Of a DNA stretch of 64,000 nt, positions 18,585 to 46,420 are shown piece after piece. Made by a program: the position numbers and the translations under genes. The notes under the pieces are model-generated. The model was not told the origin of the DNA. It did no database searches and saw only the letters and a program-made list of their open reading frames with translations. Position 1 is the stretch's first letter. Each line of letters starts with the position of its first letter. The stretch lies in the NCBI RefSeq assembly GCF_055900595.2, contig NZ_CM148325.1; one strand, 5' to 3'.

Positions 18585-18830
18585 TATGTCGAAAAATGGA
18601 CGGCGATGATACATCTCCGTCCATTTACTCCTGAATACAGTAGTATTTTACAGACAAAAATACCGTATATGGATTATTCGTTTATAATCAGGATAATCTA
18701 ATAAAAGGACCCCTGAAAAAGTGGTTAACATGGAACAAATGAAAGTTACTCCTTCTGTAATTGTTATGTCTTATGGCCTCATCCCTTTTAGCCGGATACT
18801 GAAAAACATCCTTCGAGAGGGACGGTTACC

Positions 18831-19544
18831 ATGAAGATTTTTTTGGAGAATCTTTATCATTCTGATTGCTATTTCCTGCCGATAAGAGATAATCAGCAAG
18901 ACCTTGTCGGCGTTGAGTTAATTACCCATTTCTCCAGTGAAGATGGTACGGTTCGTATACCGACGAGTCGGGTTATAGCGCAACTTACCGAGGAGCAACA
19001 TTGGCAATTATTTTCTGAGCAGTTGGAATTGCTAAAATCATGCCAACACTTTTTTATTCAACATAAACTCTTTGCCTGTCTTAATTTAACCCCACAAGTG
19101 GCTACTTTATTATTAGACAGGGATAATTACGCGGGCGAACTATTAAAATATCCGTTTATTGAACTGTTGATTAATGAGAATTACCCGCATCTCGATGAAG
19201 GAAAAGATAATCGCGATCTTTTGTCCTTATCGCAAATGTATCCCCTTGTGTTAGGTAATTTGGGCGCAGGCAATAGCACAATGAAAGCGGTTTTTGATGG
19301 TCTTTTCACCCGCGTCATGCTGGATAAAAGTTTTATTCAGCAACAAATCACGCATCGCTCCTTCGAACCGTTTATTCGTGCGATCCAGGCGCAAATTTCC
19401 CCATGTTGCAATTGCATCATCGCGGGGGGCATTGATACGCCAGAAATAATGGCACAGATTATCCCCTTTGATTTCCATGCTCTCCAGGGATGCCTGTGGC
19501 CTGCCGTTCCTGTAAATCAGATAACGACGTTGGTTCAGCGATAA
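18831..19544 (+). CDS. ydiV: Degenerate EAL-like protein YdiV/RflP (anti-FlhD4C2 factor)
   Basis: 237 aa ORF; ELI in place of EAL motif (VGVELITHF). Confidence 0.9.
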   Translation: MKIFLENLYHSDCYFLPIRDNQQDLVGVELITHFSSEDGTVRIPTSRVIAQLTEEQHWQLFSEQLELLKSCQHFFIQHKLFACLNLTPQVATLLLDRDNYAGELLKYPFIELLINENYPHLDEGKDNRDLLSLSQMYPLVLGNLGAGNSTMKAVFDGLFTRVMLDKSFIQQQITHRSFEPFIRAIQAQISPCCNCIIAGGIDTPEIMAQIIPFDFHALQGCLWPAVPVNQITTLVQR

Positions 19545-19567: not shown

Positions 19568-21043
<1,476 letters not shown>

Positions 21044-21046
21044 AGG

Positions 21047-21238
21047 CTACTTGGTCAACAGCAGCTTGCCAGCCTGAGTTTTACGAAGCAGATATTCTTG
21101 CCCGTCATGATCGATAATCAGTTTGCCATCCGGACCTAACAGTGTCTGGCTGGTAATTCGCCGAATGGGCTGCGGGGAGGCGGTCTTGTGATTGGCATCC
21201 GTTTCAGGCGTGAGTTTTCTGCTATCCGTATAACGCAT
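21047..21238 (-). CDS. ydiE: HemP-family small protein YdiE (63 aa)
   Basis: ATG at 21236-21238 (minus) gives [28 protein letters not shown]; Fur-box-like sequence just upstream. Confidence 0.8.
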
Positions 21239-21249
21239 AAAAATTAATA

Positions 21250-21284
21250 ATAATTGATATAACAATGATTCTTATTATCAATAT
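21250..21284 (-). promoter_or_regulatory. Putative Fur box in ydiE promoter
   Basis: Minus-strand read TGATAATAAGAATCATTGTTATATCAATTATTA resembles Fur consensus GATAATGATAATCATTATC. Confidence 0.55.
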
Positions 21285-21369
21285 TCTGGCGGACCAGAGC
21301 AAGCAGTAATTTGTTGAGAAGACAACAAGTTGCGCAGAAATGCCCATTCCGTCAGGAATGGGCACGCAT

Positions 21370-22416
21370 TCAGAAGCGGGTATCAACCGCAGAGGCGAGT
21401 TTTTCGACCAGGCGTTCGGTATCTTCCCAGCCCAGACACGGGTCGGTAATCGATTGACCGTAAGTGAGCGGCTGACCGCCGACGATTTTTTGCGTTCCTT
21501 CGCGCAGGAAACTTTCCGCCATAATTCCAGCAATCGCCGTAGAGCCATTGCGGATTTGCTGACAAATATCCTCACAAACTTCTAACTGGCGACGGTGCTG
21601 CTTCTGGCAGTTACCGTGGCTGAAATCCACCACCAGATGTTCAGGTAAATCAAACTCGTGCAACGTATCGCAGGCAGCGGCGATATCATCCGCATGGTAA
21701 TTCGGCTTTTTGCCGCCACGCATAATAATGTGGCCATACGGATTGCCGCTGGTCTGATAGATGGTCATTTGACCGTTTTTGTCAGGCGAGAGGAACATAT
21801 GGCTGGCGCGGGCAGCGCGGATAGCATCCACGGCAATTCGCGTGTTGCCATCGGTACCATTTTTAAAACCTACCGGACAAGAGAGTGCCGAAGCCATTTC
21901 ACGGTGGATCTGGCTTTCGGTAGTACGTGCGCCAATCGCGCCCCAACTGATTAAATCAGCAATAAACTGACCGGTCACCATATCGAGGAACTCAGTCGCG
22001 GTAGGGACGCCCAGCTCATTGACCTGTAAAAGTAATTTGCGCGCCAGCTCCAGACCGTGATTTACCCGGTAGCTGCCGTTTAAATCCGGATCGGAGATTA
22101 GCCCTTTCCAGCCGACAACAGTTCGTGGTTTTTCAAAATAGGTGCGCATTACGATTTCCAGCCGTGACTGGTACTGGTTGCGCAGCGACTGCAGACGGGT
22201 GGCGTACTCCATTGCAGCGGTGAGATCGTGGATCGAGCAGGGGCCAATAATGACCAACAGTCGCTTATCTTCACCATTCAGTATTTTTTCAATTCTGCGG
22301 CGGGAGTCGGTGACATGGGTGGCGACGCCAGGCGTTACGGGATACCGTAGCGCGAGTTCGGCGGGCGTTACCAGGCTCTCAATACGCGCAGTACGGAGTT
22401 CGTCAGTTCTGTTCAT
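21370..22416 (-). CDS. aroH: DAHP synthase, Trp-sensitive isozyme
   Basis: 348 aa ORF, recognised AroH sequence. Confidence 0.95.
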   Translation of the reverse strand: MNRTDELRTARIESLVTPAELALRYPVTPGVATHVTDSRRRIEKILNGEDKRLLVIIGPCSIHDLTAAMEYATRLQSLRNQYQSRLEIVMRTYFEKPRTVVGWKGLISDPDLNGSYRVNHGLELARKLLLQVNELGVPTATEFLDMVTGQFIADLISWGAIGARTTESQIHREMASALSCPVGFKNGTDGNTRIAVDAIRAARASHMFLSPDKNGQMTIYQTSGNPYGHIIMRGGKKPNYHADDIAAACDTLHEFDLPEHLVVDFSHGNCQKQHRRQLEVCEDICQQIRNGSTAIAGIMAESFLREGTQKIVGGQPLTYGQSITDPCLGWEDTERLVEKLASAVDTRF

Positions 22417-31549: not shown

Positions 31550-32461
31550 ATGTATCAACGCTGTTTTGATAACGCCAGCGAAACGCTGTTTGTCGCCGGT
31601 AAAACGCCACGGCTTTCACGTTTTGCATTTAGCGATGATCCAAAATGGGAGTCCGGACATCACGTTCATGACAATGAAACCGAGCTGATTTACGTCAAGA
31701 AAGGGGTAGCAAGGTTTACCATCGATTCTTCGTTATATGTCGCGCATGCCGATGACATTGTGGTGATAGAACGTGGCAGGTTGCATGCGGTGGCCTCTGA
31801 CGTTAACGATCCAGCAACGACGTGTACCTGTGCGCTGTACGGCTTTCAGTTTCAGGGGACTGAGGAAAATCAGCTACTGCAACCGCATTCTTGCCCGGTC
31901 ATTGCCGCAGGGCAGGGAAAAGAAATCATTAAAGCCTTATTTAATGAGCTAAGTGTGATTTTGCCGCAAAGTAAAAATAGCCAAACATCTTCGTTATGGG
32001 ACGCATTTGCCTATACGTTAGCAATTCTTTACTACGAAAACTTTAAAAATGCTTATCGTTCGGAGCAGGGATATATTAAAAAAGATGTTCTGATAAAAGA
32101 TATTCTTTTCTATCTGAATAATAATTATCGCGAAAAAATCACTTTAGAGCAGTTATCGAAAAAATTTCGTGCCAGCGTCAGTTATATTTGCCATGAATTT
32201 ACCAAAGAGTATCGTATTTCCCCTATTAACTATGTTATTCAACGGCGTATGACGGAAGCGAAATGGTCACTCACCAATACTGAATTATCACAGGCAGAGA
32301 TCTCCTGGCGTGTGGGTTATGAAAATGTCGATCACTTTGCCAAACTGTTTTTGCGCCATGTCGGCTGTTCGCCCAGCGATTACCGCAGGCAATTTAAAAA
32401 CTGTTTTGCGGAACAAGAAATCTTATCTGAATTTCCTCAACCGGTAAGTCTTGCCGGATAA
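31550..32461 (+). CDS. ydiP: AraC-family transcriptional regulator
   Basis: 303 aa ORF with C-terminal AraC-type HTH region; divergent from ydiQ. Confidence 0.88.
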   Translation: MYQRCFDNASETLFVAGKTPRLSRFAFSDDPKWESGHHVHDNETELIYVKKGVARFTIDSSLYVAHADDIVVIERGRLHAVASDVNDPATTCTCALYGFQFQGTEENQLLQPHSCPVIAAGQGKEIIKALFNELSVILPQSKNSQTSSLWDAFAYTLAILYYENFKNAYRSEQGYIKKDVLIKDILFYLNNNYREKITLEQLSKKFRASVSYICHEFTKEYRISPINYVIQRRMTEAKWSLTNTELSQAEISWRVGYENVDHFAKLFLRHVGCSPSDYRRQFKNCFAEQEILSEFPQPVSLAG

Positions 32462-46180: not shown

Positions 46181-46402
46181 TCTGAACGCTGCACTTTTTT
46201 ACCTATCTCTTAAATAGTCATTTTCAATACAACTTTTTCTTTTTCATCACAGCCTTAATGCTCCTTAGATAATAATCATTATCTAACAATGAGATACCTA
46301 ATTCTTAGCGTGCCTGTTAACCCACACATCAGGGTCTATGCTTATTAAAAGCAGGCAAAAAGCATGTTTTACGGTAAAGCCCCTGCGTTTGCTGGGTTGA
46401 AC

Positions 46403-46420
46403 TGATAATCATTATCACTA
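46403..46420 (+). promoter_or_regulatory. Putative Fur box in suf operon promoter
   Basis: TGATAATCATTATCACTA 43-60 nt upstream of sufA ATG; near-match to Fur consensus; second similar element ATAATAATCATTATC at 46269-46283. Confidence 0.6.

Follow-up and report, generated by a model that had tools for sequence, protein, structure and literature searches.

A Fur operator on the core promoter of ydiE (hemP) in Escherichia coli

The window, that is, the whole stretch of 64,000 nucleotides that was analysed (NCBI RefSeq assembly GCF_055900595.2, contig NZ_CM148325.1), is a piece of E. coli chromosome. Several RefSeq E. coli genomes match the 421 bases around the site discussed here with 100% identity, and this region is present in 5,422 of the 5,426 complete genomes, the lineage of the window being 95-99% identical to most of them there. 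The site lies between the end of aroH and the small gene ydiE, and the following features frame it.

22416..21370, minus strand: aroH, open reading frame
21342..21363, minus strand: aroH terminator hairpin, GCCCAUUCC-UGAC-GGAAUGGGC (-26.3 kcal/mol, z = -5.3), with a weak T-tract
21238..21047, minus strand: ydiE / hemP (b1705), open reading frame of 63 codons plus stop, annotated as hemP in RefSeq
19607..21043, plus strand: selO (ydiU), open reading frame, convergent with ydiE

The hairpin behind aroH insulates ydiE from read-through of aroH transcripts. At the other end of the gene, the stop codons of the convergent ydiE and selO are 3 nt apart (21041-21049) and there is no terminator between them, so ydiE transcripts must run antisense into selO. 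The ydiE-selO pair has been listed as an excludon candidate (PMC12288877).

The YdiE protein matches the Pfam family PF10636 (hemP) with 55.9 bits over residues 27-63, where the cut-off is 25, and the NCBIfam equivalog PRK10183 with 135.5 bits. Both a crystal and an NMR structure exist, under the names 'YdiE' (PDB 4YNX) and 'putative cytoplasmic protein' (2LOJ). An earlier note on this DNA had described the product as a HemP-family protein associated with hemin uptake. The family membership holds, but the association with hemin uptake is a family label only: the neighbours are aroH and selO, and the 50 kb inspected around ydiE contain no heme transporter, nor was any other heme-uptake gene found there. 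A neighbouring heme receptor and transport operon of the hemR/hmuR type is a mark of the Yersinia-type locus, not of the protein family, and it is absent here.

The transcription start of ydiE has been determined experimentally in K-12, at position 1787609, giving a 5' UTR of 28 nt (Kim et al. 2012, supplement, PMC3415461). The upstream sequence listed for it reads ...CTTGCTCTGGTCAGCCATAATATTGATAATAAGAATCA, ending ...AAGAATCA. Over the stretch that runs from the -35 hexamer to the ATG, the window departs from K-12 at two positions only, 21291 and 21286, both in the spacer, and from the operator onwards there is no difference. As the two are identical around the start, the start point maps to the A at 21266. 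At 21291 the minus strand of the window has C where K-12 has A, and at 21286 it has G where K-12 has T; K-12's CATAAT thereby becomes CAGAAT, and the operator is untouched. With the published start 28 nt before the ATG, the operator is placed on the -10 hexamer and +1, as laid out below.

21297..21302, minus strand: -35 hexamer TTGCTC, 17 bp upstream of GATAAT, which fits the published start point
21274..21279, minus strand: -10 hexamer GATAAT, at -13 to -8, inside the primary Fur site and invariant in 13 loci
21266, minus strand: ydiE transcription start point (A), mapped from K-12
21264..21282, minus strand: primary Fur site ATTGATAATAAGAATCATT, 20.1 bits, centre 21273, 35 bp before the ydiE ATG
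21258..21276, minus strand: second, overlapping Fur site AATAAGAATCATTGTTATA, 18.1 bits, centre 21267, covering the transcription start
21256..21279, minus strand: 24-mer GATAATAAGAATCATTGTTATATC of the earlier note, by direct reading; its first 19 bases match the consensus at 15 of 19 positions
21239..21266, minus strand: 5' leader of 28 nt, AU-rich, with a single G and without a Shine-Dalgarno sequence
21236..21264, minus strand: weaker Fur-like sites in the AT-rich leader, the best with 11.4 bits, centre 21252; 7 of 19 leader columns invariant

The promoter TTGCTC-17-GATAAT was suggested by the tetramer CTTG, which is invariant and lies exactly 17 bp upstream of GATAAT in all 13 aligned loci, and the mapped start at 21266 fits it. 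A consensus promoter and terminator scanner found nothing between 20900 and 21600. It missed both elements because its thresholds exclude a 3-of-6 -35 hexamer and a short T-tract; the -35 hexamer and the terminator are supported instead by conservation, folding and the published start point. A different ydiE promoter, TTGATA-16-TATCAA, has been proposed from RNA polymerase SELEX (Shimada et al. 2014). We did not adopt it, since its -10 hexamer is not kept beyond Escherichia and the mapped start disagrees with it; with that promoter Fur would cover the -35 through the -10 hexamer, and core elements are thus covered under either promoter. Two further candidates were rejected, a leaderless transcript whose -10 hexamer would be TATTAT at 21252..21247, against which the published 28-nt UTR speaks, and a 72-codon reading frame from a TTG start at 21265, which would begin inside the operator and whose extension is not conserved.

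The leader is unstructured (minimum free energy -3.6 kcal/mol, z = 0.53), and a search of 20900-21500 against Rfam gave no RNA family at E <= 1. A Shine-Dalgarno sequence is missing in the orthologs as well, and the start codon shifts between them. Citrobacter and Salmonella have M-x-R-M-D with two ATGs; the first is gone in S. arizonae and the second in E. coli.

The earlier note had picked out the 24-mer GATAATAAGAATCATTGTTATATC, within 21239-21300, as a Fur-box-like element controlling ydiE. The 24-mer is found exactly as noted, on the minus strand at 21279..21256, and it does lie between the aroH stop codon (21370) and the ATG of the 63-codon ydiE. Its part from 21279 to 21261 agrees with the classical consensus GATAATGATAATCATTATC at 15 of 19 positions, which is the second-best match on both strands of the whole window. 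The note had also proposed scoring with a position weight matrix, and this gave 20.1 and 18.1 bits at the ydiE promoter. Together with the consensus match, these scores bear out the likeness to a Fur box. The operator itself is thus real, but the 24-mer does not delimit it precisely: the best register, ATTGATAATAAGAATCATT, is of the 9-1-9 / 7-1-7 type and shifted by 3 nt, and the double site reaches slightly beyond the 24-mer.

The sequence, strength, rarity, conservation and geometry of the operator are results of the present analysis. The matrix used was a symmetric 19-bp one built from 16 independent K-12 Fur sites, with ydiE and sufA excluded from the training. The sites came from the promoters of fhuA, gpmA, fepA-fes, fepD-entS, entC, fepB, fur, tonB, cirA, exbB, bfd, ryhB, sodA, fecA, fecI and fhuF, and each was placed at, or at most 5 bp from, the coordinates given in Chen et al. 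2007. The training sites scored 19.1 bits on average in leave-one-out tests, and their matrix scores (11-28 bits) are close to the published information values, for example 27.7 bits for gpmA as compared to 27.4 in Chen et al. 2007. For ydiE the same paper predicted, with an information-theory model, a Fur cluster of 20.1 bits with its centre 35 bp ahead of the start codon, which is the same value and the same position as we obtained. It described 10 overlapping ydiE sites over 53 bp; our matrix gives 9 positive-scoring positions over 47 bp, and the weaker sites in the leader possibly extend the cluster. The two strong sites lie within the range of footprinted sites, and they overlap at a spacing of 6 bp, with the second downstream of the primary. 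An offset of 6 bp between overlapping Fur sites is the usual arrangement for two dimers. Together the two sites span -16 to +9, over the -10 hexamer and the start point, as is classic for a repressor that acts by blocking RNA polymerase.

When the whole window was scanned, the highest scores were found at 56108-56126 (20.7 bits, 263 bp upstream of ydhY), 21264-21282 (20.1 bits, ydiE promoter), 46401-46419 (19.6 bits, 59 bp upstream of sufA) and 21258-21276 (18.1 bits, ydiE promoter), in this order. The ydhY and sufA hits are published Fur clusters (Chen et al. 2007), and the matrix therefore behaves as it should; a simple weight matrix puts the three known Fur promoters of the window on top. 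The best hit reads AATGATAATAAATATCACT and corresponds to the ydhY cluster that Chen et al. 2007 predicted with 19.9 bits at -255. The site at 46401-46419 is the known Fur box of the suf operon and ChIP-exo peak P52, and a second site in the suf region, at 46268-46286, scores 13.3 bits about 130 bp further upstream. A Fur-like site of 15.8 bits was also observed at 18843-18861, in the first codons of ydiV (ATG at 18831). Of the Fur ChIP-exo peaks listed for ydiU/ydiV, that of W3110 falls at about 18857-18869 and that of MG1655 at 18721-18751, about 100 bp upstream, where the matrix finds no site. Two intragenic hits, at 8574-8592 in thrS (16.4 bits) and at 32042-32060 in ydiP (15.0 bits), both exceed what shuffled windows reach on average as their best score (14.2 bits, sd 2.1).

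That Fur occupies the site in vivo and that ydiE is derepressed in fur mutants has, like the start point, been shown by published work in K-12, which has the identical sequence. For ydiE, the supplementary data of Gao et al. 2023 (PMC10164565) contain a Fur ChIP-exo peak at 1787605-1787617 of MG1655, classed as repression, together with a matching peak in W3110; the MG1655 peak maps to 21270..21258 of the window. In the MG1655 delta-fur mutant the expression of ydiE was raised by log2 +2.87 (P = 1.9e-14), and ydiE belongs to the 36-gene core Fur regulon common to the nine strains studied and to both Fur iModulons (PMC10164565). In Salmonella delta-fur, ydiE was derepressed 7.4-fold, and earlier work is cited there by which Fur-binding sites had been established upstream of ydiE in Salmonella and of hemP in Yersinia (Troxell et al. 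2011). A 2003 microarray study, as cited by two papers, one of them Chen et al. 2007, found Fe2+-Fur-dependent expression of ydiE. The iron-responsive expression that the earlier note had suggested is therefore well founded.

There are also indications that Fur could be one input among several, or a context-dependent activator in some strains, which would make simple repression an incomplete description. In BL21(DE3) delta-fur, ydiE went down (log2 -1.10; Gao et al. 2023, PMC10164565), and it is the only gene of the core Fur regulon that falls in this mutant according to the same supplements. Rcs control of Salmonella ydiE has been listed (Troxell et al. 2011), the homologous hemP promoters of Yersinia are co-regulated by OmpR, and an invariant motif, A.TTA...CTTG, is found upstream of the Fur site. 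However, the derepression is clear in Salmonella and in eight of nine E. coli strains, with 2.2-8.1 log2 in the seven besides MG1655 (PMC10164565), and an operator lying on the -10 hexamer and +1 has the geometry of repression, not of activation. We consider it distinctly unlikely that Fur acts here in this composite way, and the preferred reading is still direct repression.

To see how the operator has been kept in relatives, we scanned one genome per species with the YdiE protein. The scan yielded just 13 loci, in Escherichia, Citrobacter and Salmonella, because the query has only 63 residues. One of them, a 417-bp low-coverage contig labelled Streptomyces sp. NTH33 (NZ_POTZ01001146.1) with YdiE at 98% identity, is almost certainly E. 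coli contamination of the Streptomyces assembly and was left out. The alignment of the other 12 loci with the window starts at the end of aroH and reaches into ydiE. In these 13 sequences from three genera the double operator has a mean identity of 0.94, with 20 of its 25 columns invariant, as compared to 0.35 for the segment between the terminator and the -35 hexamer, 0.62 for the promoter spacer and 0.67 for the first 24 codons of ydiE. The block TTGATAATAA[G/A/T]AATCATTGT is invariant across the alignment at all other positions than the bracketed one. All 12 orthologous loci have a Fur site in the same position, with 14.3-23.6 bits, and the versions in Citrobacter and Salmonella, ATTGATAATAATAATCATT, are stronger sites. 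The aroH terminator is another conserved island, where the stem has been kept in the 13 loci with changes on both arms. In E. coli EC02 (NZ_CM169499.1) we observed a 145-bp deletion at 2589-2590, corresponding to about 21167-21311 of the window, by which the ydiE promoter is lost along with the Fur operator and about 24 codons; what is left still carries the annotation hemP, with 51 residues.

Since the -10 hexamer and the transcription start lie inside the conserved block, conservation is unable to separate the Fur operator from the promoter elements. It could then be argued that the core promoter alone accounts for the conservation, that Fur binding is incidental or weak, and that delta-fur acts indirectly, for instance by way of RyhB or general iron stress. 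Neither a footprint nor a gel shift for the ydiE promoter of E. coli was found in the literature, and ydiE stands in Table 4 of Chen et al. 2007 without an F or G mark, which leaves this argument some room. Against it, both palindromic half-sites (TTGATAAT ... ATCATTGT), which are of the canonical Fur type TGATAAT/ATTATCA, are conserved well beyond the needs of a -10 hexamer, whereas the -35 hexamer is less conserved, with three of its six positions invariant. Furthermore, Fur has been cross-linked at the ydiE site in vivo by ChIP-exo (PMC10164565). Taken with the half-sites, this makes an incidental role of Fur very improbable, and we keep to the reading of the conserved block as a Fur operator laid over a promoter.

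The rarity of such sites was assessed with 200 dinucleotide-preserving shuffles of the window and 20,000 shuffles of the 131-bp intergenic region. Sites of at least 20.1 bits occurred 0.005 times on average in the shuffled window, as compared to 2 observed, and sites of at least 18 bits 0.065 times, as compared to 4 observed. The intergenic region and the 62-nt core were also shuffled separately, because the local DNA is AT-rich; the intergenic shuffles reached 20.1 bits in 0.055% of the 20,000 trials, and two sites of at least 18 bits 6 bp apart were seen in none of them. That the likeness to a Fur site arose by chance, from the AT-richness of a promoter and leader to which H-NS perhaps binds and at which Fur has no role, is hardly credible: the core is 74% A+T, the Fur consensus is itself AT-rich and repetitive and H-NS is listed in the aroH-ydiE spacer (Shimada et al. 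2014), but composition-matched shuffles of the core attained 20.1 bits in 0.09% of trials and never the double site, the exact half-sites are invariant in three genera, and the published ChIP-exo peak and delta-fur derepression refute it in practice.

The sequence at the ydiE promoter is a real operator for the iron-sensing repressor Fur, and it belongs, very probably, to a sigma-70 promoter that is repressed by occlusion. In such a mechanism the two overlapping 19-bp sites, 6 bp apart, would let Fur cover GATAAT and the start point, from about -16 to +9. When iron is sufficient, Fe2+-Fur dimers would bind both sites, probably from opposite faces of the helix, and they may also spread into the AT-rich leader. 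Bound Fur would then stop RNA polymerase from binding to the promoter or from opening it. Under iron shortage, or where fur is mutated, Fur would leave and a short, monocistronic ydiE mRNA would be made. The steric nature of the occlusion is inferred, and likewise the number of dimers at ydiE.

The Fur site and the regulation of ydiE are already known from literature between 2003 and 2023, so the finding is correct and ordinary. That the earlier reader picked out a true operator from the letters alone makes it a positive control, with little weight as a discovery. The biological question shifts from the operator to the role of YdiE, a member of the core regulon, where it is unlinked to a heme transporter. 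It is conceivable, if unlikely, that YdiE is an orphan HemP-type small regulator that feeds back on the expression of iron-uptake genes, and not a component of heme uptake. That HemP/ChuP homologues are regulators in other bacteria is a hint in this direction. Overexpression of YdiE in BL21 gives resistance to phage T5, which would be consistent with lower levels of FhuA and may be taken as a hint. As part of this idea, the conserved AU-rich leader with its weak Fur sites and no Shine-Dalgarno sequence may add a second layer of control.

Compared with the ydiE promoter of K-12 (b1705; Chen et al. 2007, Kim et al. 2012, Gao et al. 2023), there is no difference of substance. The sequence from the -35 hexamer to the start codon is the same save for the two spacer substitutions, both outside the operator, the gene order aroH-ydiE-selO is the same, and the matrix score and position agree with those of the published prediction; the window is simply another E. 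coli lineage. The operator also resembles the classical ones of iron-uptake promoters, among them those of fhuA, fepA-fes, entC, cirA, sodA, fecI and ryhB, with which it shares a similar information content (11-28 bits, 20.1 for ydiE), the overlapping 6-bp arrangement and the position on the core promoter. It differs from the classical iron-uptake targets in that its gene product is a 63-residue protein, and not a transporter or biosynthetic enzyme, and in that the 28-nt leader of its transcript lacks a Shine-Dalgarno sequence.

The hemP gene of Yersinia enterocolitica, which is of the same family as ydiE (PF10636), is the first gene of the Fur-repressed heme-uptake operon hemPRSTUV, and the related hemP/chuP genes of Stenotrophomonas and Chromobacterium have, like ydiE, a Fur-repressed promoter directly upstream. 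In these three bacteria hemP heads an operon for a heme receptor and transport, whereas ydiE is a monocistronic orphan between aroH and selO.
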